The notes under the pieces: model-generated
Databases searched by the model: none
Seen by the model: only the letters and a program-made list of their open reading frames with translations
What the model was told of the DNA's origin: nothing
Shown: positions 2,330 to 64,000 of the stretch, in pieces
Position numbering within the stretch: position 1 is the stretch's first letter
Layout of the letters: every line of letters starts with the position of its first letter
Made by a program: the position numbers and the translations under genes
DNA from: Vicinamibacteria bacterium
GTDB lineage: Bacteria > Acidobacteriota > Vicinamibacteria > Vicinamibacterales > JAENWD01
DNA length: 64,000 nucleotides
Assembly (NCBI GenBank): GCA_963800785.1
Contig: CAWDCH010000016.1
Span: forward strand, 98,688-162,687
Direction: 5' to 3'

Positions 2330-3841
2330 TTAGCCAGACATACTCCGCTCCTTCGAATCCTGCAGGATGAAATTCACATCCGGGGTCCCTTCGGCAATCA
2401 CCAGGATCTGATAGGAAAACAGCGTCCGGCTGATCCGGATGAGGGCCTGGTTGATGGCGAGTGCGGTCCTCCCGAGCAGGCCGGTGCCCAGGACCTTGGG
2501 GAAGGGCGCCGGGACGCCGCGAATCTCCTTGATTCGGAACCCGGCATCAGTGAGCAGCCGCCGGATGGCCCTGAACGTGAACAGCCGCGTGTGCGTGCGG
2601 TCGAGGATGCCGGCCTTCCCGTAGTTGAACTGCCCGAGCAAAAGCATGACGCGCTGGATCGCGAAAGCCACGTTGGGCGTGGTGAGGACCAGCGTCGGCG
2701 GCGAGTAGTCGAACTGAGCGCGGATGCGCTCGATGAATCGCTCGGGCTCCTTCAGGTGCTCGATCACGTCCAGCAGCAGCACGTAGTCATAACCGCGGAC
2801 GCTGAAGGTCGGCTCGTCGTCCAGGTCCTGCCGGAAGCATGTCATGAGCGGGTAGTCGGTCTGGTCGGGGAACGCGCAATCGACGACGGCGACCTTGCAG
2901 CCCTTCTTCACGAGCTCGCGAGCGACCCCTCCCGGACCTGCGCCGAGGTCGATGACCTTCGCCCCGGCCGGCACAGCGTCAAGGGCGAACTGATGGCTGC
3001 TCGGGTATCCGAGCTTCAAGTCGTAGTGCGCGTTGGCGTGCTCGCTGATCGGGTCGAACCGGCGCTGATACAGGATCCCCGAGCGATGCGTGACGCTCTG
3101 CAGCGTGGCCACCGTCACGTCCCTGGCGTACTTAATGCCGTTCACCCGGCTGATCTCGCCGCCGTAATACGTGGGAATGGACAGCTCGAGGATTCGTTGT
3201 CTCGCGTTGAGCAGCTGGATGATGATTTCGGTGTCGAAGTGGAACAGGTTGGAGTTCAGATGAAATGGGACCGTCTTCAGCGCCTGCACGGAGTAGACGC
3301 GATACCCACTGTGGAATTCGGTGAGCTTCGTTCCCAGCAGACGGTTCTGCATGCCGGTGAGGATCCGGTTCCCGACAAACTTGTAGAGCGGCATGCCCCC
3401 CTTCAGCGCGCCAAGCCGGGTCATCATGCGGCTGCCGAACACCGCATCAGCCTCGCCGCCCGCGATCGGCGCTACCAGCCTCGGAAGCTCCTCCGGTGCG
3501 TACTGCCCGTCTCCATGCACCATCGCCACGAAGTCGAACGCTTCGCGGATCGCAAATGCGTAGCCGACCTTCTGATTCCCTCCGTAACCCTGGTTGTACT
3601 CGTTGCGCAGAACCGTCATGCGGATCTGAGGATGGGTCTGCTGGTACTGCCGTCCGATCTCGGATGTTCGATCGTGAGACGCGTCGTCGACGATCAGAAC
3701 TTCGCAATCGTACTGGTCGAAGATCGAGCGCGGGATCCGTTCGAGCACCGACCTCAGCGTGTCTTCGGCGTAATAGGCGATGACGAACACGAGGAGCCGG
3801 TGCTGGCGGCTTTCGGCCATCCGGCGACTATACAACCCCAT
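2330..3841 (-). CDS. bifunctional glycosyltransferase family 2 / class I SAM-dependent methyltransferase fusion
   Basis: The N-terminal half has GT2 signatures (VFVIAYYAE, VDDASHD, MVHGDGQY). The C-terminal half has SAM motif I (VIDLGAGPGG) and the LLLDVIEHL motif. Confidence 0.75.
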   Translation of the reverse strand: MGLYSRRMAESRQHRLLVFVIAYYAEDTLRSVLERIPRSIFDQYDCEVLIVDDASHDRTSEIGRQYQQTHPQIRMTVLRNEYNQGYGGNQKVGYAFAIREAFDFVAMVHGDGQYAPEELPRLVAPIAGGEADAVFGSRMMTRLGALKGGMPLYKFVGNRILTGMQNRLLGTKLTEFHSGYRVYSVQALKTVPFHLNSNLFHFDTEIIIQLLNARQRILELSIPTYYGGEISRVNGIKYARDVTVATLQSVTHRSGILYQRRFDPISEHANAHYDLKLGYPSSHQFALDAVPAGAKVIDLGAGPGGVARELVKKGCKVAVVDCAFPDQTDYPLMTCFRQDLDDEPTFSVRGYDYVLLLDVIEHLKEPERFIERIRAQFDYSPPTLVLTTPNVAFAIQRVMLLLGQFNYGKAGILDRTHTRLFTFRAIRRLLTDAGFRIKEIRGVPAPFPKVLGTGLLGRTALAINQALIRISRTLFSYQILVIAEGTPDVNFILQDSKERSMSG

Positions 3842-7768: not shown

Positions 7769-9367
7769 ATGACCTCGAAAAGGCGCCTTGCCGATCCTCA
7801 CGATCCGCCTGCCCGAATGATGATCGAGACCCGACCCTCAGCAGCGGCGCCGCGCCGCATGTGGCTGGGGCGAAGACTCGAAACACTGTTCTCCCTCGCG
7901 GCCCTCGGCCTATCCGCAGTCACCCTGGTCTTCTATGCGATCGTCGTTCTGACGCACTTATCGGATAGGCACAACATTGACTGGATGGCAGGCATCTGGA
8001 TTGCCCTGGCAAAGTTCGTGAACTCTGGCACGCTCTACCCCCCGCTGTATGACGGTGCCTCTTTCGGCGGCACCCGCTATATGCCCATCTTTTTCGTCCT
8101 TCATTCCGTGTGGGCTCAGTTGTTCGGCCAGAACTATTTGCTCTCGGGCAAATTGCTTTCGCTGGTGATCGTGATCGCACTGACGAGCGTGACGTTCGCG
8201 ATCGTTCGTCGCTTTGGCGTTCCTCGTTCCTTCGCGCTCCTGCTCGCGACCCATTTGCTGCTTACTGGCCCCGGGCTTCAGGCAGCCACCAGCATCAGGG
8301 CCGACGCTCTTGCGGCACTCTTCCAATTGAGTGCGGTCGCCTTGATCGCCCATCTGGGCCCGCGACTCGCCGTTCCTGCGGCCGCGCTCGCGGCGTTGGC
8401 AGTGTTCACAAAGTTCAATGCCTTGTGGGCTCCCACCGCAATCGCGGTGTGGCTCTTTCTCGAGCATCGTCGCAGTTTCGTCCCGTTCGTGGCAAGCTTC
8501 ATCGGATTTGTCTTCGCGTCAGCGTCTGTCGTCCAGCTCGTTAGTCGTGGCCATTTTTTCGAGAGCCTCGCAACGATGGCCAACAGCGGCATCCGTCTGG
8601 GGTTCGCAGTCCAGAAGTCGACTGTCTACACCCTGGAGATGGTTCTGACCGATGCCCCAGCGACGTGGGCCCTGGTTCCGTTTGTGGCAGCCAGTTGGGT
8701 GCTGGCAGCCCGACGGCGGCAACTCACTGTTTACCACTTCGCGTGGCTGGCTTCGATGATTATCCTCCTCGTGGTGATGGCGGATTCGGGAACGGGCGCA
8801 AATCACTTCGTCGAGCCGATCGTCCTCGGCTCGGTCGTCCTCGCGACACTGTGGCCCGCGCATGCTTCTGACATGTCTTCAGCGATTCGCGTCGTCGTCG
8901 CGACGGCCGTGCTGTGGGCGGGCGCGAGTGGCCTAGTCCTCCACTTACGTGCACCCGTGCAGGAGCTCATCCGCGGGCGTGCCCATCCGCAACCGTGCGG
9001 CGATTCCGCCGGGCGAGTGTGCCCGACAGTCGACGCACTGCTCGCCAGAATTTCGCGCGGAACTCGGGTACTCGCAGAGGATCCGTCCATACCTGTTGCT
9101 CGTGGAGAGCTTCCGGTTGTTCTCGACGCATGGGCGATTCCAAAGATTGAGCGTCGACACCCAGAGTGGGTGGCGCAATTAGCAAGACGGGTCGAGGCTC
9201 GCGAGTTCGACTATGTGATTCTGCTGCATCGCTACGAACAAGTCGATCCTGAGTTCAAGCTGTGGTACGCAGACGAATTCGGGAAGACCGTTATGTCTGC
9301 CGTCAAACGACGGTACACCTGGGTTGGCGAAGTCGATGGCTTCCATCTGTACGAACCCCGCAAATAA
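7769..9367 (+). CDS. large polytopic membrane protein, possibly a GT-C-type glycosyltransferase
   Basis: Many hydrophobic segments span the first ~370 aa, followed by a soluble C-terminal ~140 aa. The function is inferred only from this architecture and the envelope-gene neighbourhood. Confidence 0.5.
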   Translation: MTSKRRLADPHDPPARMMIETRPSAAAPRRMWLGRRLETLFSLAALGLSAVTLVFYAIVVLTHLSDRHNIDWMAGIWIALAKFVNSGTLYPPLYDGASFGGTRYMPIFFVLHSVWAQLFGQNYLLSGKLLSLVIVIALTSVTFAIVRRFGVPRSFALLLATHLLLTGPGLQAATSIRADALAALFQLSAVALIAHLGPRLAVPAAALAALAVFTKFNALWAPTAIAVWLFLEHRRSFVPFVASFIGFVFASASVVQLVSRGHFFESLATMANSGIRLGFAVQKSTVYTLEMVLTDAPATWALVPFVAASWVLAARRRQLTVYHFAWLASMIILLVVMADSGTGANHFVEPIVLGSVVLATLWPAHASDMSSAIRVVVATAVLWAGASGLVLHLRAPVQELIRGRAHPQPCGDSAGRVCPTVDALLARISRGTRVLAEDPSIPVARGELPVVLDAWAIPKIERRHPEWVAQLARRVEAREFDYVILLHRYEQVDPEFKLWYADEFGKTVMSAVKRRYTWVGEVDGFHLYEPRK

Positions 9368-9438
9368 CGCGGTCGACGGGCTCGAAGTCAAGGCGACCAA
9401 GAGCAGTCCGTCGCTCACGATAGCAACTGTCTTGAAAG

Positions 9439-9825
<387 letters not shown>

Positions 9826-23967: not shown

Positions 23968-24054
23968 TGGTGCGGAAGGGGGGATTCGAACCCCCACGTT
24001 CTTGCGAACGCCAGCCCCTCAAGCTGGTGCGTCTGCCAGTTCCGCCACTTCCGC
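23968..24054 (-). tRNA. tRNA-Leu (anticodon GAG), long variable arm, CCA encoded
   Basis: The reverse complement folds as a cloverleaf: acceptor GCGGAAG/CTTCCGC, anticodon stem CCAGC/GCTGG with loop TTGAGGG, and T-arm GGGGG-TTCGAAT-CCCCC. Confidence 0.9.
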
Positions 24055-32427: not shown

Positions 32428-33450
32428 GTGAGCGTCGCGTCCCATATTTATGGCTTGGTGGCTCTCCGCAGGCGAGCCTGGCTCGTCGATCACCCCTCCC
32501 GAATCCGCCGGCTCGATCGGCCCGTGGTCAGCGTGGGTGGTCTGTCGGCGGGTGGGAGCGGCAAAACGCCGCTCGCCGCCTTTGTCGCGCGACGACTGGT
32601 CGAGGCCGGCCATCGTCCCGCGATTCTGAGCCGCGGCTACGCGCGAACGGCTCCCGACGATGGCGTCACCATCGTCAGCGATGGGACTCGTCTGCGTGCG
32701 GACCTCGGTCGCGCGGGCGACGAGCCGCTGATGCTGGCGCGCGCGCTCCCCGATGTGCCCGTCCTCGTGTCGCCGGACCGCTATCTCGCGGGGCGTGTTG
32801 CTGAACTGCACCTGGGCGCGACCGTGCACGTGCTGGATGATGGCTTCCAGCACATGGCGCTGGCGCGGGATGTCGATCTCCTCATCGTCGACGCCACCGA
32901 GGTGGAGCGGCCGCGGCTGCTGCCGTCGGGCCGGTTGCGAGAGCCGCTCGCTGCGGCACGTCACGCGGATGCGATCCTCGTGGCGGGAGAAGGTAGCGAC
33001 CCCCGTGCGGTCGCAGATCGACTCCGTGTCGACACGGCCTTCACGCTGACCCGCACTGTCGGCACGCCTGTGGAAGAGACGTTGATGGCGCCGGTGCCCG
33101 TGAGACTGCCAGCGAGAGGGTTCCTGCTGAGCGGCATCGCGCGTCCGGACCGGTTCGAAGACGATGCCCGGCGTCTCGGCGTCGAGGTCGTTGGTACCAT
33201 GGTGCTCAGGGATCACTACGCGTATCGACCGGCCGATATCGCCGCGATCGGGAAGCTGGTACGCGAGACCGGAGCGGACATCGTGGTCACGACCGAGAAG
33301 GATCTGGTGAAGCTGCTGATTCACCGGCCGTGGCCGTTTCGCGCTGCTGTAGTGCCACTGCACGTCGGCGTCGAGCCGCGTGACGAGTTCACCTCCTGGC
33401 TCGAGGCGCGTGTCGCGCAGGCTCCCCGGCCTGAAGGATCCGCCTCGTGA
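32428..33450 (+). CDS. lpxK: tetraacyldisaccharide 4'-kinase
   Basis: P-loop VVSVGGLSAGGSGKTP, followed by ILSRGY...LDDGFQH. Confidence 0.85.
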   Translation: MSVASHIYGLVALRRRAWLVDHPSRIRRLDRPVVSVGGLSAGGSGKTPLAAFVARRLVEAGHRPAILSRGYARTAPDDGVTIVSDGTRLRADLGRAGDEPLMLARALPDVPVLVSPDRYLAGRVAELHLGATVHVLDDGFQHMALARDVDLLIVDATEVERPRLLPSGRLREPLAAARHADAILVAGEGSDPRAVADRLRVDTAFTLTRTVGTPVEETLMAPVPVRLPARGFLLSGIARPDRFEDDARRLGVEVVGTMVLRDHYAYRPADIAAIGKLVRETGADIVVTTEKDLVKLLIHRPWPFRAAVVPLHVGVEPRDEFTSWLEARVAQAPRPEGSAS

Positions 33451-39192: not shown

Positions 39193-39265
39193 GGGCGGTT
39201 AGCTCAGTTGGTAGAGCACCGGCTTTACACGCCGGCTGTCACAGGTTCGAGTCCTGTACCGCCCA
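39193..39265 (+). tRNA. tRNA-Val (anticodon TAC), CCA not encoded
   Basis: Acceptor GGGCGGT/ACCGCCC, D-arm GCTC-AGTTGGTA-GAGC, anticodon stem CCGGC/GCCGG with loop TTTACAC, and T-arm ACAGG-TTCGAGT-CCTGT. Confidence 0.92.
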
Positions 39266-39380: not shown

Positions 39381-40342
<962 letters not shown>

Positions 40343-60258: not shown

Positions 60259-61575
60259 ATGAAGACACCTGTAGAGCAGTTCCAGAGGGCCTTGTGCGAT
60301 GGCGATGTGGCGCAGGTCAGAACGTTGCTGTCCGATCACCCCGAGGTTCGCGGCGCGGTGAACGACCCAATCGCGGAGTTCGGCGCCCGGCCGATCGCCG
60401 TCGCGCAAAAAAACCTGCCTCTCCTCGACGTGCTGCTGGAGTACGGCGCCGATCTCAATCTGAAGAGCACCTGGTGGGCTGGCGGATTCGGCGTGCTGGA
60501 CGAATGCACACCGGAAGAAGCCCCGGCGCTCATCGCGCGTGGCGCCATCGTGGACATCTTCGCCGCAGCGCGACTCGGCATGTTCGAGCGTCTACGCGCG
60601 TTGCTGGCCGAAGACCCTTCGCTCGTCCATGCGCGCGGCGGCGATGGCAAGATGCCGCTCCATTGGGCGTCAACCGTTGATATCGCGCGTTATCTGCTGG
60701 ATCATGGCGCCGATCCCGAGGCTCGCGACGTCGATCACGAGTCCACACCTGCCCAGTATCTCGTTCGCGATGTGCCCGAGGTGACGCGCCTGCTGATCGA
60801 TCGCGGCGCCTCGGTCGACATCTTCATGGCCGTGGGACTTCGAGACGCCGCGCTCGTCGACCGTTGCTTGCGCGCCGATCCCGAGGCGCTCGACCACCGC
60901 ACGTGGCACGGGCAGTACTCGGTGGCGCACAACGGCTCGCGCCCCGCCACTCGTGAGGAGATCGGCGATCGCCGCGGCGACATCTACCGCTGGGTGTTCG
61001 GCCACAACGTCTCGGCGCTCGACGCTGCGGCTCAACTTGGCGACGACGAGATCCTGGCGCAGCTCCTGGCGTCCGCAACACCCGTGCAGCGTCTGCTGGC
61101 GGCGTGCGTTCGCGGTGACCGCGCCGCGGCCAACGCCGTCCTTGCGGAACACCCGGATCTGATCCGCCAGCTCACGCCGGACCAGCAGCGCCTTCTGCCG
61201 GATCGCGCGCATGCCAACGACACGAGGAGCGTCGCGTTGATGCTCGATCTCGCCTTCGATCCGCGCGTCCCTGGCGTCGATGATGCCGAGGCGATTCGAT
61301 GGGCCGTCTTCCACGGCAACGCGGAGCTGACGCGGCTGCTCCTGCGACACGATCCACCGATTCGGGTTCGCGATCGTCGCTACAACGGCACCCTTATCGG
61401 GTGGTGTATCTACGGCGCCCTCCACGGATGGCGCCGAACGACGGGAGACTTTGCTTCGACGGCGCGGTTGCTGCTCGACGCGGGCGAGCAACTCGATCCC
61501 GGCGTGCTGCCGACGGGTCGCGCAGATCTCGATGCTGTACTGAGTCACGGATCGACGGGGACCGCCACAGACTGA
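60259..61575 (+). CDS. ankyrin-repeat protein
   Basis: Repeated ankyrin signatures are present (LLEYGADLN, GDGKMPLHWAS...ARYLLDHGADPEARD, LLIDRGASVD). The last ~10 codons and the stop lie inside the downstream repeat array. Confidence 0.8.
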   Translation: MKTPVEQFQRALCDGDVAQVRTLLSDHPEVRGAVNDPIAEFGARPIAVAQKNLPLLDVLLEYGADLNLKSTWWAGGFGVLDECTPEEAPALIARGAIVDIFAAARLGMFERLRALLAEDPSLVHARGGDGKMPLHWASTVDIARYLLDHGADPEARDVDHESTPAQYLVRDVPEVTRLLIDRGASVDIFMAVGLRDAALVDRCLRADPEALDHRTWHGQYSVAHNGSRPATREEIGDRRGDIYRWVFGHNVSALDAAAQLGDDEILAQLLASATPVQRLLAACVRGDRAAANAVLAEHPDLIRQLTPDQQRLLPDRAHANDTRSVALMLDLAFDPRVPGVDDAEAIRWAVFHGNAELTRLLLRHDPPIRVRDRRYNGTLIGWCIYGALHGWRRTTGDFASTARLLLDAGEQLDPGVLPTGRADLDAVLSHGSTGTATD

Positions 61576-62400
61576 AGGATCGCGGACAGTCACGGATCGA
61601 CTGCGTCCACGTATTGGCACGGACCATCATGGATCGAGAGAACGGTCACGCAGGGCCCAGGACACTCACGGAATAACTGATCATGCTGCCCGCGGACGGC
61701 GGATGAGCACGGACTCAGAGCGTTCACGGACTGACGCGAATGGCCACGGACATTCACAAGTCAACGGGTCACGGACGCGCGCCGATGGGTACGGATTGGG
61801 ACTAGTCACGGACGGACGCGGACGTACGCGGAAGGTCTCGGACTAATTGTCACGGATTGGCGCGCAAGGTCATGGAGCGACGCGACGTCACGGACCGCGG
61901 ATGGGCACGGCCTCAGAGCGGTCACGGACGGACGCGGATGGCCACGGACACTCACAAATCAACTGGTCACAGACGCAAATGGGTACGGATTTCGGAGTAG
62001 TCACGGATTGACGCGGACAGTCGCGGACTACCGTCGCGGATGGCCCGGAAGGTCATGGATCAAGGCAACGTCTAGGACCGCGGACGGGCATGGACTTACG
62101 GTCACGGACGCGCACGGCCACGGACACTCGCGGAACAACATTGCACTGACGCCCGCGGATGGGTACGGATTTCGGAGTGGTCACAGACTGACGCGGACGG
62201 CTACGACCATTCACGAGTCAACTGGTCACGGATAGCATCGACCGCCACGGACAATCCCGGATTCCGTCACCGATTGGCACGGAAGGTCACGGACCTGCGC
62301 AACGTCGCGGTCGCCACGGACCTTCACCGATCAACGGGTCGGACACCGCAGACAAGCCCGGATTCGGAGTGGTCACTTTGACGGCGGACGTAGGCGGACC
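61540..62400 (+). repeat. left arm of the foldback-like array: degenerate CACGGAC/GCGGAC motif on the top strand
   Basis: I counted about 50 CGGA-core motifs on the top strand and about 1 TCCG. A higher-order period of ~180-200 bp is visible (GGCCACGGACA at 61742 and 61940; GGGTACGGATT at 61788, 61981 and 62161). Confidence 0.85.
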
Positions 62401-62640
62401 ACGCCACAACCATGGCCGTCGCCGGAACTCTTCTCTATAGGCATTGGGCCGCCACGCTGCAGTAGACGATCAGTGTGTCGCGCTCCGGGTGCCGCTCGGA
62501 ACTACCAGTGGTGTGTGGCTGCTTTCTTTTGCCCACACCGTCGTCGAGGGAACCACGCTCGTCGAGACAAAGGCCCGCTCCCTTCGAATCGATGGTCGCG
62601 CTGTAGCGCAGCTCGAGACTGTCTGATGTTTGCAAATCGT

Positions 62641-63390
62641 GTGTGTCCGTGTCCGTCTGTGACGTTGTCTGATGTCCGTGGCCGTTGGTGTCGCCGGCGA
62701 CCTGGTTGTTGTCCGTGGTGGTCCACGTCGGTCCGCGACGCGTCGGAGTCCGTTGGTCCGCGTCCGTGATGTGTCTGACGTCCGTGGCCGTCGGTGTCGC
62801 CGGCGACCTGTCTGTTGTCCGTGGTAGTCCGCGTCGGTCCGCGACCTGTCCGAATCCGTGTTGGTCCCTGTCCGTCCGTGTTGTGTCTGACGTCGGTGCC
62901 AGTCCGCATCAATCCGCGACCTGTCCGAATCCGTGTTGGTCCCTGTCCGTCCGTGTTGTGTCTGACGTCGGTGCCAGTCCGCGTCGGTCCGCGACCTGTC
63001 TGTTGTCCGTGGTAGTCCGCGTCGGTCCGCGACCTGTCCGAATCCGTGTTGGTCCCTGTCCGTCCATGTTGTGTCTGACGTCGGTGCCAGTCCGCATCGA
63101 TCCGCGACCTGTCTGATGTCCGTGGGGTCCGCGTCCGTCCGTGATCTGTCCGAGTCCGTGTGTGTCCGTATCCGTCCGTGACGTTGTCTGACGTCCGTGG
63201 CCGTCGGTGTCGCCGGCCACCGGTCTGTTGTCCGTGGTAGTCCGTGTCTGTCCGTGACCAGTCTGATGTCCCTGCAGTCTGCGTCGGTCCGTGACCCGTT
63301 TGAAGTCTGGTGATAGTACGTGCTCGTCCGTGACCCCAACTTCGGCGCCGTCCGTGACCGCGACGTCGAGCAGCGACGTCGACCCGCGAC
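62641..63390 (-). repeat. right arm of the foldback-like array: the same motif family in inverted orientation (GTCCGTG/GTCCGCG on the top strand)
   Basis: I counted about 48 TCCG-core motifs on the top strand and about 1 CGGA. The top strand is A-poor. Some segments match the left arm in reverse complement. Confidence 0.85.
62846..63108. repeat. near-identical 75-bp tandem units within the right arm
   Basis: The units are at 62846-62920, 62921-62995 and 63034-63108, and match at 72-73 of 75 positions. A 38-bp partial unit at 62996-63033 separates the second and third. Confidence 0.85.
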
Positions 63391-63407
63391 CGGGTTAAAG
63401 TGGAGTG

Positions 63408-64000
63408 ATGGTTCGGCTCAGCCACCTCGGCCGTGCGCTCGACGCATGCAGTAACGCGCTGATCAGGCGCCCGGGACTCGCGCGCGCGATCCTGGGACTC
63501 GTCCTCGTGTTCGCCTGGACCACCGCCGTGGGTGCGGTGTGGTTCACGTGGGACCTGATGGCGTCGACACCCAAGCGCGACATGCTTCGCAGCGTCGGCG
63601 ACATGGCGCAGGCGACAACCCTGCTCGATCTCAACGGTCGTCCAGCGTTCACGATCTTCAAAGAGCAGCGCATCGAGATCCCGCTGGCGAAGGTGTCGCC
63701 GAACGTCCGCAAGGCGATCCTTTCGGTCGAAGACCAGCGGTTCTACGAACATCGCGGCGTCGACACCATCCGCATCGTCGGCTCCGCGATCGCGAACTTT
63801 CGCAAAGGCCGTCGCGCGCAGGGTGCCAGCACTCTGACACAGCAGCTGGCGCGACAGAGCTTTCTCACTCTCGATAAGACGTACCGTCGGAAGTTCCAGG
63901 AGGTCATCGTCGCGGCAGAGCTCGAGTCGCAGTACTCGAAGAACGAGATTCTCGAGCTGTACTTGAACAAGGTGTATTTCGGCGACGGCCTCCACGGCAT
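63408..64000 (+). CDS. class A penicillin-binding protein (PBP1A-type), N-terminal TM and glycosyltransferase (GT51) domain; 3' end outside window
   Basis: This ORF is not in the ORF track because it is open at the window edge. The ATG is preceded by GGAG. The translation reads MVRLSHL...TM...SVEDQRFYEHRGVD...GASTLTQQLAR...ILELYLNKVYFG. Confidence 0.85.
   Translation, partial: MVRLSHLGRALDACSNALIRRPGLARAILGLVLVFAWTTAVGAVWFTWDLMASTPKRDMLRSVGDMAQATTLLDLNGRPAFTIFKEQRIEIPLAKVSPNVRKAILSVEDQRFYEHRGVDTIRIVGSAIANFRKGRRAQGASTLTQQLARQSFLTLDKTYRRKFQEVIVAAELESQYSKNEILELYLNKVYFGDGLHG

Follow-up and report, generated by a model that had tools for sequence, protein, structure and literature searches.

A kilobase-scale foldback array between ankyrin-repeat and PBP1A genes of a Vicinamibacteria bacterium as a probable degenerate GxxExxY nuclease hairpin cassette

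Results

The stretch of DNA analyzed here (the window) comprises 64,000 nucleotides from a Vicinamibacteria bacterium, and near its downstream end an ankyrin-repeat protein gene is followed by the 5′ part of a gene for a class A penicillin-binding protein (PBP1A). The locus of interest, approximately 1.85 kb in length, fills the spacer between the ankyrin stop codon (61575) and the PBP1A start codon (63408), and both genes lie on the + strand, as does the apparent nuclease-gene relic described below (Table 1). Specifically, the last codons and the stop of the ankyrin gene fall within the first repeat units, the first CACGGA units being found at 61547 and 61591. On the downstream side, window positions 63396–64000 match positions 8868–9473 of a related locus (L001) at 83% (blastn), and the PBP1A orthologue of L001 has Transgly and Transpeptidase domains.

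Table 1. Features of the ankyrin–PBP1A interval, in window coordinates
Feature	Position	Strand	Description or basis
Ankyrin-repeat protein gene, upstream flank	60259..61575	+	ORF; protein P0001 (438 aa, 100% identical) contains Ank Pfam domains
Left arm	61547..62428	+	~47–49 forward units, core RCGGAY, typically GTCACGGAC
Loop/core between the arms	62401..62640	.	Almost without the motif (CGGA 2, TCCG 1)
Apparent relic of a GxxExxY / PDDEXK_3 nuclease gene	62527..62614	+	Spans the D...ExK core region (FAHTVVEGTTLVETKARSLRIDGRAVAQL)
Right arm	62645..63356	+	~44–48 reverse units, on the + strand GTCCGTG / GTCCGCG
Short conserved leader before the PBP1A start	63357..63407	+	Ribosome-binding region aaagtggagtgATG; sequence comparison
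Class A penicillin-binding protein gene (PBP1A), 5′ part, exits the window	63408..64000	+	

With respect to the arms, each carries ~48 units, among which blocks of tandem duplication are clear. The unit, 10 nt long and non-palindromic, has the consensus (G)TC[A/G]CGGA[C/T], and its modal spacing of 10 nt agrees with the ~10-bp spacing given for some stretches in the original prediction. The two opposed polar arrays described there were likewise confirmed by a strand-specific recount, in which CGGA and TCCG occurred 49 times and once, respectively, in the left arm (61576–62400; 14 CACGGAC, 0 GTCCGTG), and once and 48 times in the right arm (62641–63390; 20 GTCCGTG, 0 CACGGAC). From its frequency in the remaining 61.5 kb of the window, CGGA would be expected ~4.8 times per arm, and the polarity has a binomial p of ~1e-13 for each arm. 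The base composition mirrors this arrangement as had been claimed, with 23% A and 14% T on the left and 8% A and 27% T on the right, such that the AT skew flips from between +0.2 and +0.27 to between −0.5 and −0.65. Outside the locus, CGGA (351) and TCCG (372) are neither enriched nor skewed, and the window contains a single array copy in 64 kb; further clusters of units at 32503, 36001 and 56819 lie inside coding sequence and look like chance.

The arms also possess a higher-order organization. In the left arm, a period of ~176–198 nt, close to the predicted 180–200 bp, reflects old tandem duplications whose copies are 60–88% alike. The right arm exhibits periods of 75, 113 and 188 nt, and certain of its copies are 98% identical, as in the recent tandem duplication that relates 62803–62928 to 62991–63116. 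The proposed homology of the two arms in inverted orientation was recovered as 73–85% complementarity across stretches of 26–52 nt.

In terms of structure, folding of the single strand from 61540 to 63395 predicted one giant hairpin with 470 left–right pairs and a minimum free energy of −952.9 kcal/mol (z = −9.9 versus dinucleotide shuffles), the z value for either arm folded alone being ~0. Taken together with the motif counts, this supports the description of the locus as a true foldback of polar tandem subunits around a short core. Its non-coding nature was also upheld, as GC content by codon position is flat in the arms (0.58–0.68), in contrast to GC3 of 0.77–0.83 and GC2 of 0.43–0.50 in the flanking genes, and the ORFs of the arms had no Pfam match. 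At gathering thresholds, Rfam models identified only three tRNAs in the whole window, while a permissive scan of the locus gave chance-level matches only. A simple scan of the locus for sigma-70 promoters and intrinsic terminators found none.

The core between the arms had been described as unique, and as a statement about anonymous DNA this did not survive, since the core holds what appears to be a relic of a GxxExxY gene. The evidence is similarity to the gene of one relative (L210), which consists of 80% identity over 55 nt to L210 positions 3182–3236 (blastn, E 1.6e-7), a local alignment score of 55 as compared with 19.2 ± 2.3 for shuffled sequences, and 55% identity over 29 aa to residues 70–97 of the L210 protein (tblastn). 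An independent family HMM built without the L210 gene placed the relic in the matching register at only E ~0.3. Outside the relic the core had no blastn match to other loci, the core as a whole had none before L210 joined the comparison, and its ORF had no Pfam match. On this sequence evidence, ~90 nt appears to be all that this genome retains of the nuclease gene.

Building from the L210 match, the orthologous spacer of related Vicinamibacterales (Acidobacteriota) is informative. In L209, the ankyrin–PBP1A spacer measures 207 nt and contains 4 forward and 5 reverse motifs, while the L001 spacer consists of 1.1 kb of tandem hairpin units. The same spacer in L210 comprises a forward arm, an insertion sequence (IS; rve_3 + HTH), an intact PDDEXK_3 gene and a reverse arm, and thus a relative bears the nuclease gene in the loop of its hairpin at this site. 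The outer spacer edges are orthologous across the window, L209, L210 and L001, and because the leader is orthologous in the relatives, expansion of the arms is internal to the spacer. Overall, these comparisons indicate that the ancestral state of the spacer was a small hairpin of the cassette type. They also speak against a decayed repeat-protein ORF, one of the scenarios under which the foldback interpretation would have failed, as the loop in relatives instead contains a nuclease gene that is intact and is not of a repeat-protein type.

It is very improbable that the locus is a chimeric or collapsed foldback created by long-read assembly. In favor of such an artefact, related metagenome-assembled genomes (MAGs) are long-read assemblies with frameshifted IS genes. 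However, the arms are not mirror copies, being complementary only locally and differing in their higher-order periods. Collinearity with relatives extends to the two flanking genes and the two outer edges of the spacer, and the element type also occurs in contigs assembled from short reads, L209 and L210 among them.

With a stricter motif pattern, genome searches identified foldback arrays at no fewer than 19 loci (8-kb stretches) on 12 contigs of the related MAG MFD04850 and at 9 loci of MAG MFD05567, all of them intergenic. A looser three-motif pattern applied to viral contigs yielded 109 mostly chance matches and one unrelated phage coding repeat. The arrays of the two MAGs contain 7 to 73 motifs, and the forward arm is nearly always 5′ of the reverse arm. 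Rough ORF calls placed ~9 arrays between convergent genes, ~8 between tandem genes and 2–3 between divergent genes. Copies of IS110-family and rve_3 IS are located in foldback loops. Apart from L180, no intact GxxExxY gene was found among ~28 fetched loci of the two MAGs. With regard to MITEs, which as non-autonomous derivatives of DDE transposons combine target-site duplications with terminal inverted repeats of a resident IS, the arms do not match the IS copies in the loops, and inspection by eye of the cassette edges (GGAC...GTCC ends) revealed no target-site duplication. To judge from these assemblies, gene-less foldbacks of the window's motif are dispersed across many spacers in related genomes and act as IS insertion sites.

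This dispersal bears on the idea that the array is a chromosomal landmark, either an iteron- or centromere-like array or a set of polar sequences converging on a terminus or dif-like point. The strict polarity of the units, their convergence on the core and a 10-bp spacing equal to one helical turn would suit such a role. Nonetheless, we regard it as extremely improbable, as relatives carry many such loci per genome and the orthologous spacer contains just 4 + 5 motifs or a non-polar tandem. The neighbors are the ankyrin and PBP1A genes with no adjacent rep, par or xer genes, and the motif shows no enrichment or skew in the other 61.5 kb, so that neither the iteron/centromere-like nor the KOPS/Ter-like likeness raised in the original prediction was substantiated. 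GC skew is flat in the window and uninformative at such a scale.

The dispersed arrays also raise the possibility of a host-owned repeat of the REP/BIME type, acting as a terminator or as a 3′ stabilizer of mRNA. The foldbacks would then be ordinary extragenic palindromes particular to each species, with loops that offer safe sites for insertion, and GxxExxY would be one guest among several, alongside the IS110 and rve_3 IS, with no functional tie to the motif. Several features are consistent with this proposal. Gene-less arrays are far more common than gene-bearing ones; arrays usually begin 0–30 nt past a stop codon and, by the rough ORF calls, are less frequent between divergent genes than between convergent or tandem ones; the whole locus is a very stable hairpin; and the IS110-family and rve_3 copies in the loops recall the known targeting of REPs by IS110-type elements (PMC1525189). 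On the other side of the balance, the unit is unlike REP in being a non-palindromic 10-mer, and the window locus yielded no terminator-like site. The remaining evidence comes from the nuclease genes themselves.

Two loci found through the motif alone, L180 in an Acidobacteriota MAG and L204 in Proluteimonas luteida (Gammaproteobacteria), each contain a GxxExxY gene exactly between the forward and reverse arrays. The gene in the L210 loop belongs to the same family (PDDEXK_3, E 2.5e-30; TIGR04256 (GxxExxY), E 5.8e-29). We also assembled loci by protein similarity alone, as a test set of 80 metagenomic GxxExxY loci with GC contents of 0.34–0.68. The seeds were three proteins to which the motif had led, the 80 genes are their closest relatives (41–99% identity), and an ispD|ispF site is common to several of them, so that the set is neither family-wide nor fully independent. 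Across the 80 loci, the density of forward motifs reaches 0.33–0.43 per 25 nt in the region 25–100 nt upstream of the gene, and that of reverse motifs reaches 0.35–0.42 per 25 nt in the 0–50 nt downstream, against a background of ~0.07 in both cases, which amounts to a pile-up of 5–6 times background beside the gene. At least three motifs on each side were present in 19 of 66 loci and at least two on each side in 6 more, while ~17 others exhibited a like layout built from variant units (e.g. GCAGAT, ACAGAT, GCTGAT and ACCGAT). In all, ~42 of the 66 protein-selected genes are flanked by arrays. What is conserved is the unit and not perfect pairing of the stem, as the middle two bases of the spacer in one arm do not complement those in the other.

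The unit core and a layout of 3–4 units of 10 nt around GxxExxY recur in Acidobacteriota, Gammaproteobacteria, Gemmatimonadota and low-GC metagenome contigs. Such recurrence around one gene family would not be expected if each host had a repeat of its own. In addition, the majority of genes chosen by protein similarity are flanked in this way, none of the 80 loci had a gene of another type within a triplet hairpin, and the arms adjoin the GxxExxY ORF tightly. We therefore consider a host-owned REP-like repeat to be unlikely. With respect to orientation, the gene runs in the direction of both neighbors in 18 loci, and in no locus is it antisense to a co-directional pair that encloses it. Named genomes provide similar layouts, namely fabD|GxxExxY|fabG in Sphingomonas and radA|GxxExxY|FAD-dependent protein gene in Bacteroides. 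Some members depart from the pattern, with a different unit (CGCGAAG) in Sphingomonas and only 1 + 1 motifs in Treponema.

These family data also bear on a further reading, in which the arms are transcribed towards the core as long, unstructured RNAs whose ~48 CACGGAC/U sites each would titrate a CsrA/RsmE-like RNA-binding protein. The unit (UCACGGAU/C) resembles the RsmE/CsrA site of hcnA, (A/U)CANGGANG(U/A). GGA exceeds TCC by 57 to 3 in the left arm and by 54 to 1 in the right arm when read as its reverse complement, and a single arm is no more structured than its shuffles. However, nearly all other family members have forward and reverse units on one strand, which would pair, and the variant units RCAGAT and RCTGAT lack GGA; the idea was dropped on these two grounds. 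The absence of an Rfam match and of promoter-like or terminator-like sites in the locus, as well as the link of the arrays to a nuclease gene, further reduces this reading to a highly implausible one.

The GxxExxY / PDDEXK_3 family is large, with 22,524 clusters at 50% identity (E ≤ 1e-3), and one survey listing it gives its function as unknown (PMC3424549). A protein model suggests a minimal RecB/Cas4-like PD-(D/E)XK fold, in which D72, E82-x-K84 and Q96-xxx-Y100 are invariant. A search of solved structures by sequence found none for a GxxExxY protein, and the fold search returned only generic PD-(D/E)XK neighbors. Neither PADLOC nor PHROGs had a family match for GxxExxY.

Discussion

Taken together, these observations are best explained if the window locus is a degenerate, hyper-expanded GxxExxY hairpin cassette whose gene has decayed, a reading to which we assign a probability of roughly 0.7. 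In intact cassettes, a PD-(D/E)XK nuclease gene of 125–140 aa (TIGR04256 GxxExxY, Pfam PDDEXK_3) occupies the loop of a foldback. Its 5′ arm consists of 2–4 direct units of 9–10 nt with the core RCNGAY, mostly RCGGAT, and its 3′ arm of the same units inverted. The cassette is wedged, in the sense orientation, into a short spacer between two host genes, where pairing of the arms may exclude the insert as a loop from the transcript of the host and render the insertion nearly harmless. The arms would have grown by tandem duplication from about 3–6 units to about 48 each, and repeated breakage, repair and slippage in the tandem units would allow such lengthening. After the death of its gene, the window copy would have become an inert giant foldback.

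With respect to mechanism, we infer that the nuclease recognizes the motif and is responsible for spread or maintenance of the cassette. By analogy with transposases and their subterminal repeats, the nuclease or a partner protein would recognize the phased RCGGAY units on both arms, and this recognition would maintain or spread the cassette, for example through cutting of empty hairpins and repair from a gene-bearing copy. Gene-less foldbacks would then be non-autonomous derivatives of the cassette. Both the mobility of the cassette and the binding of protein to motif belong to this putative scheme, and a trans-acting GxxExxY copy in the window's genome would be hypothetical, no intact gene being present in the 64-kb window. 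Since IS elements also occupy the loops, the nuclease gene could itself be another guest of pre-existing hairpins.

A broader proposal is that GxxExxY cassettes constitute an unrecognized class of selfish or mobile element, in which a minimal nuclease recognizes the phased RCNGAY units of the two inverted arms and by this means moves or inserts copies of itself into empty hairpins, with gene-less foldbacks, giant ones such as the window locus among them, as non-autonomous offspring. Such a class would be a counterpart of foldback transposons or of REP/RAYT systems with a different enzyme. We put this forward only tentatively and think it more doubtful than not, and no transposition, excision or insertion event of a cassette has been seen or documented. 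Consistent with the original statement that its author knew of no described bacterial element of this kind, our literature searches found no published description of the hairpin-cassette architecture or of such a bacterial element.

In terms of known systems, Foldback (FB) transposons of eukaryotes have long inverted arms of variable-number tandem subrepeats and a short or coding middle. The cassette shares with them the long inverted subrepeat arms, highly variable in length between copies, whereas the hosts, sequences and enzymes are unrelated, and the analogy first drawn with these elements thus holds for architecture and implies neither homology nor shared enzymology. Subterminal arrays are also found in the TnsB sites of Tn7, the ends of Mu, the AAACGG hexamers of Ac/Ds and the 12-mers of En/Spm. 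As in the cassette, short phased units (protein-binding in the transposons) run in direct order at one terminus and in inverted order at the opposite one, with the enzyme gene inside, but those elements rely on DDE-type or multi-protein machineries and generate target duplications, whereas the cassette encodes a single PD-(D/E)XK protein of ~130 aa. The heptamer arrays (STRR) of cyanobacteria and the BOX elements of pneumococci are short, tandemly amplified intergenic units with variable module number, and they resemble the cassette in their modular tandem units and potential secondary structure. Their units are different, and repeats of this type are not known to have a nested nuclease gene.

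The REP/BIME elements and RAYT genes of Proteobacteria (REPINs) offer a closer likeness, as they are extragenic, multi-copy and hairpin-forming, occur in clusters of variable number, are favored insertion sites of the IS110 family (PMC1525189), and are mostly gene-less, with a small nuclease-type gene flanked by only a few of the copies. However, the REP unit is an imperfect palindrome of 20–40 nt, whereas the cassette unit is a phased 9–10-mer that is inverted only at the level of the array. In addition, RAYT is an HUH Y1 transposase, in contrast to the RecB/Cas4-like cassette protein, and the cassette gene lies within the hairpin loop and in sense in host operons. The intervening sequences (IVS) of 23S rRNA, of the Leptospira and Coxiella type, similarly have a small ORF in the loop of a long stem inside a host transcript, and pairing of the stem would draw the host sequences on either side close to each other. 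Their ORF encodes a four-helix-bundle protein; the cassette differs in lying outside rRNA, in its protein family and in its unit-array arms, and an IVS interpretation was rejected because no rRNA or other Rfam family was found around 40 GxxExxY loci.

The motif link provides the GxxExxY family with a concrete, testable candidate substrate, namely phased inverted RCNGAY units, and it outlines a genomic lifestyle in which the gene is nested in sense in host operons (e.g. ispD|ispF, fabD|fabG and liu-type). It would also explain the intergenic foldback arrays that reach kilobase size in Vicinamibacteria. Should the nuclease act on the arms, the cassette would offer a very small gene a new means of persisting or spreading in the genomes of bacteria. 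Otherwise, the arrays would represent a new REP-like repeat family that serves as a landing pad for IS110-type elements. Finally, the arrays probably break short-read assemblies, since most GxxExxY-bearing contigs are only 1–2 kb long.

Architecture of the spacer

The 1.83-kb gap between the stop codon of the ankyrin-repeat gene and the ATG of the downstream class A penicillin-binding protein gene (PBP1A) was found to lack coding signal, as the original prediction had held. Long open reading frames do run through the arms of the locus, but were rejected as genes since GC content does not vary with codon position in them and Pfam returned no match; they exist because the composition is skewed. 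Computed composition also reproduced the claimed mirroring of A/T skew between the arms. With respect to the repeated motif, strand-specific counts gave CGGA/TCCG values of 49/1 in the left arm and 1/48 in the right (polarity p ~1e-13 for each arm). At the rate seen elsewhere in the window, an arm would contain ~4.8 CGGA. The corresponding GGA:TCC ratios are 57:3 and 54:1. The 240-nt middle of the locus holds two CGGA and one TCCG. The unit consensus in the arms is (G)TC[A/G]CGGA[C/T], and 10 nt is the most frequent distance between units, in agreement with the spacing first noted by eye.

The arms of this copy have been amplified as tandem blocks. Those of the left arm measure ~176-198 nt, with copies 60-88% alike, close to the higher-order period reported there; the right arm also contains such blocks, and some of its 126-nt copies are 98% alike. 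The left-arm blocks are the older ones, and some right-arm blocks are recent. The proposed homology of the arms in inverted orientation holds in patches that are 73-85% complementary, and the locus folds as a single strand into one giant hairpin with 470 inter-arm pairs (z = -9.9), whereas neither arm folded on its own exceeds shuffled sequence in degree of structure. No Rfam family matches the locus, and a simple scan found neither a sigma-70-like promoter nor an intrinsic terminator within it.

The first repeat units provide the final codons and stop of the upstream host gene here and at two other loci (see table). The ankyrin protein of the relative L001 ends in ...LVTDRRGSD*, whereas that of the window ends in ...LSHGSTGTATD*; the C-terminal tail of the adjacent protein is thus remodelled by the element.

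Features of the window and of loci retrieved from other genomes; the three tRNA genes are the sole Rfam matches within the window
Sequence	Positions	Strand	Feature
Window	23971-24054	-	tRNA gene
Window	39193-39265	+	tRNA gene
Window	39381-39454	+	tRNA gene
Window	61540-61575		Repeat units forming the ankyrin gene end (stop, 61575)
Window	61576-62400		Left arm
Window	62527-62581		Match to L210 nuclease gene
Window	62528-62614	+	Frame of the probable relic
Window	62641-63390		Right arm
Window	63408		PBP1A ATG
L001	7740-7770		Repeat units forming the host gene end
L204	2915-2935		Repeat units forming the host gene end
L002	11683-13179		Reverse transcriptase gene following the ankyrin homologue
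L210	1645-2789		IS with HTH_23/28/29 and rve_3 domains
L163	748-1860		IS with HTH_23/28/29 and rve_3 domains
L119	1058-2291		IS110-family copy (Transposase_20), frameshifted
L123	3453-4600		IS110-family copy (Transposase_20), frameshifted
L291	1140-1640		GxxExxY gene between CGCGAAG / CTTCGCG arrays
L179	4985-5090		Second simple array directly behind a single-arm array
L127	159-326		Empty Aeoliella foldback
L164	3664-3877		Empty Aeoliella foldback
L149, L129, L201			Empty Aeoliella foldbacks
L011	2320-2970		Coding repeat, unrelated

The same spacer in relatives and the probable origin of the core

The ancestral state of this site is a small hairpin. In the relative L209 the ankyrin-PBP1A spacer is only 207 nt long and consists of a hairpin with four forward and five reverse motifs, and in L210 a six-motif forward arm is followed by an insertion sequence (rve_3 + HTH), an intact PDDEXK_3 (GxxExxY) nuclease gene and a reverse arm directly ahead of the PBP1A start. 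The 1.1-kb spacer of L001 is a tandem ~94-nt unit carrying both motif orientations, and on two JGI contigs the gap lengths alone are just 354 and 54 nt. The outermost spacer sequences are orthologous in the window, L209, L210 and L001, and the differences therefore arose within a hairpin that was already present. Several results contradict the reading of the locus as an assembly artefact. Neither arm is a mirror copy of the other, and collinearity with relatives holds on both flanks, rendering a chimeric assembly unlikely.

A further 4+5 hairpin occurs in L001, at a distance of just 4 kb. In L002, from a 5.37-Mb relative, a reverse transcriptase gene (RVT_1) rather than PBP1A comes next after the ankyrin homologue, and synteny is thus broken at ~70% protein identity.

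The core had been described as unique. It is indeed poor in motifs but is not anonymous DNA, since 55 nt of it match the L210 nuclease gene at 80% identity (E 1.6e-7), with an alignment score of 55 against 19.2 +/- 2.3 for shuffles. Its plus-strand frame reads FAHTVVEGTTLVETKARSLRIDGRAVAQL and shares 55% identity with L210 protein residues 70-97, which form the D...ExK core. A family HMM built without L210 found the same place and register with E ~0.3, which is not significant alone, and for this reason we regard retention of a GxxExxY gene relic in the window copy as probable rather than certain.

A dispersed foldback family

The locus belongs to a dispersed family of foldbacks. A search by motif alone, with a pattern of three phased units and a single genome for each species, identified 19 distinct 8-kb stretches spread over 12 contigs in MFD04850, a long-read Vicinamibacteria MAG, and nine in MFD05567, another Acidobacteriota MAG, with further matches in Holophagales, Gemmatimonadota, Planctomycetota (Aeoliella) and Proteobacteria. 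Arrays comprise 7 to 73 motifs, the forward arm lies 5' of the reverse arm in nearly every one, and some are whole hairpins in tandem. All are intergenic, mostly starting 0-30 nt past a stop codon, and by rough ORF calls they are far commoner between convergent or tandem genes than between divergent ones. Several results contradict the interpretation of the arrays as a sponge RNA, and likewise as landmark sites.

One MFD05567 array (L179) is single-armed, with nine GCGGAT units, and is followed immediately by another simple array of a different kind, with ~12 CTGAAC/TTGAAC units spaced 7-9 nt. Empty 4+4 GCGGAT foldbacks sharing the prefix gaattcgtcGCGGAT were found in Aeoliella straminimaris, a cultured planctomycete, and in Aeoliella sp.; the retrieved Aeoliella stretches contain no GxxExxY gene. 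A phage-like IMG/VR match (L011) is a 12-nt tandem coding repeat, CAGGTCACGGAT..., encoding QVTDQV..., and is a chance match to the loose pattern, unrelated to the family.

A nuclease gene in the hairpin loop

In intact members of the family, the loop holds a GxxExxY gene (TIGR04256). Two loci found by motif, L180 (Acidobacteriota) and L204 (Proluteimonas luteida), have this gene exactly between the arms, the latter as a 450-nt cassette between enoyl-CoA hydratase and biotin carboxylase genes. We also retrieved 80 GxxExxY genes from metagenomes, selected solely on protein similarity (GC 0.34-0.68); they share 41-99% identity with their seed proteins, which had come from the motif search. Across the 80 loci, forward units peak 25-100 nt upstream of the gene (0.33-0.43 per 25 nt) and reverse units 0-50 nt downstream (0.35-0.42), over a background of 0.04-0.08 in far flanks and gene interiors. 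At least three units stand on each side in 19 of the 66 loci with both flanks, at least two in 6 more, and variant units (GCAGAT, ACAGAT, GCTGAT, ACCGAT etc.) in the same layout at ~17 more, although several loci share one site and these counts are therefore not independent events. The canonical cassette is GGAC-(RCNGAT-N3-4) x 2-4, 10-80 nt, the ORF, and (ATCNGY-N3-4) x 2-4-GTCC. Hairpins in the sample were gene-bearing in 17 cases (loops 385-573 nt) and empty in 12 (loops 13-159 nt), and no other gene type was enclosed among the 80 loci. The unit is conserved while the two middle spacer bases are non-complementary between arms, a sequence pattern suggesting that the unit is recognised, and arguing less for selection on stem perfection.

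At 18 loci the gene runs in the direction of both its neighbours, and it is never antisense inside a co-directional pair. The ispD-ispF junction is a recurrent site in the sample; annotated genomes add fabD-fabG (Sphingomonas parapaucimobilis) and radA-FAD-dependent protein gene (Bacteroides finegoldii). The unit differs at some annotated sites, with CGCGAAG and GGACRCAGA as examples. In L291, on an S. parapaucimobilis plasmid, inverted CGCGAAG arrays flank the gene within the fab operon, which indicates that the unit sequence can vary under a conserved architecture.

Metagenome contigs bearing ankyrin homologues or GxxExxY genes are mostly 1-3 kb and end near the elements, consistent with repeats breaking short-read assemblies.

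Insertions in the loops and a model for the element

The loops of several large arrays contain IS copies. Two IS110-family copies in MFD04850, 77% alike over 1.17 kb, each lie with a forward arm on one side and a reverse arm on the other, in separate arrays, which suggests that an IS110-type element targets these loops; extragenic palindromes are known targets of such elements (PMC1525189). Array loops of two genomes hold an rve_3 IS, that of L210 adjoining the intact GxxExxY gene. Such insertions, together with the position of arrays at gene 3' ends, fit our main alternative, in which the repeat is REP-like and belongs to the host, and its loops do no more than draw in insertions, the nuclease gene among them. 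What this leaves unexplained is the association of one unit layout with one gene family across phyla.

We favor a nuclease-bearing foldback element. By analogy with transposases on subterminal repeats, the nuclease or a partner may bind the phased units of both arms, and this binding could maintain or spread the cassette, for example if empty hairpins were cut and repaired from a gene-bearing copy. Foldbacks without the gene would then be non-autonomous derivatives, and arms could grow through break repair and slippage among tandem units. Arm pairing may also extrude the insert from the host transcript as a loop, limiting harm. In the literature searched, no publication was found that connects GxxExxY genes with arrays of units on their flanks, and none that describes these foldbacks.

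The GxxExxY protein

The family comprises 22,524 clusters at 50% identity (E <= 1e-3), and the single survey found to list it describes the function as unknown (PMC3424549). An alignment of 43 homologues shows D72, E82-x-K84 and Q96-xxx-Y100 to be invariant. No solved structure was found by sequence search, nor any defence-system or phage family match in PADLOC and PHROGs. The AlphaFold model (pLDDT 87, pTM 0.81) is a minimal PD-(D/E)XK core whose closest solved folds belong to Cas4, a Holliday-junction resolvase and a lambda-exonuclease-like enzyme, each with a modest TM between 0.4 and 0.5. Some members of 250-277 aa (P0241, P0242, P0246 and others) contain two matched stretches per protein, which indicates tandem fusions or read-through of neighbouring cassettes.
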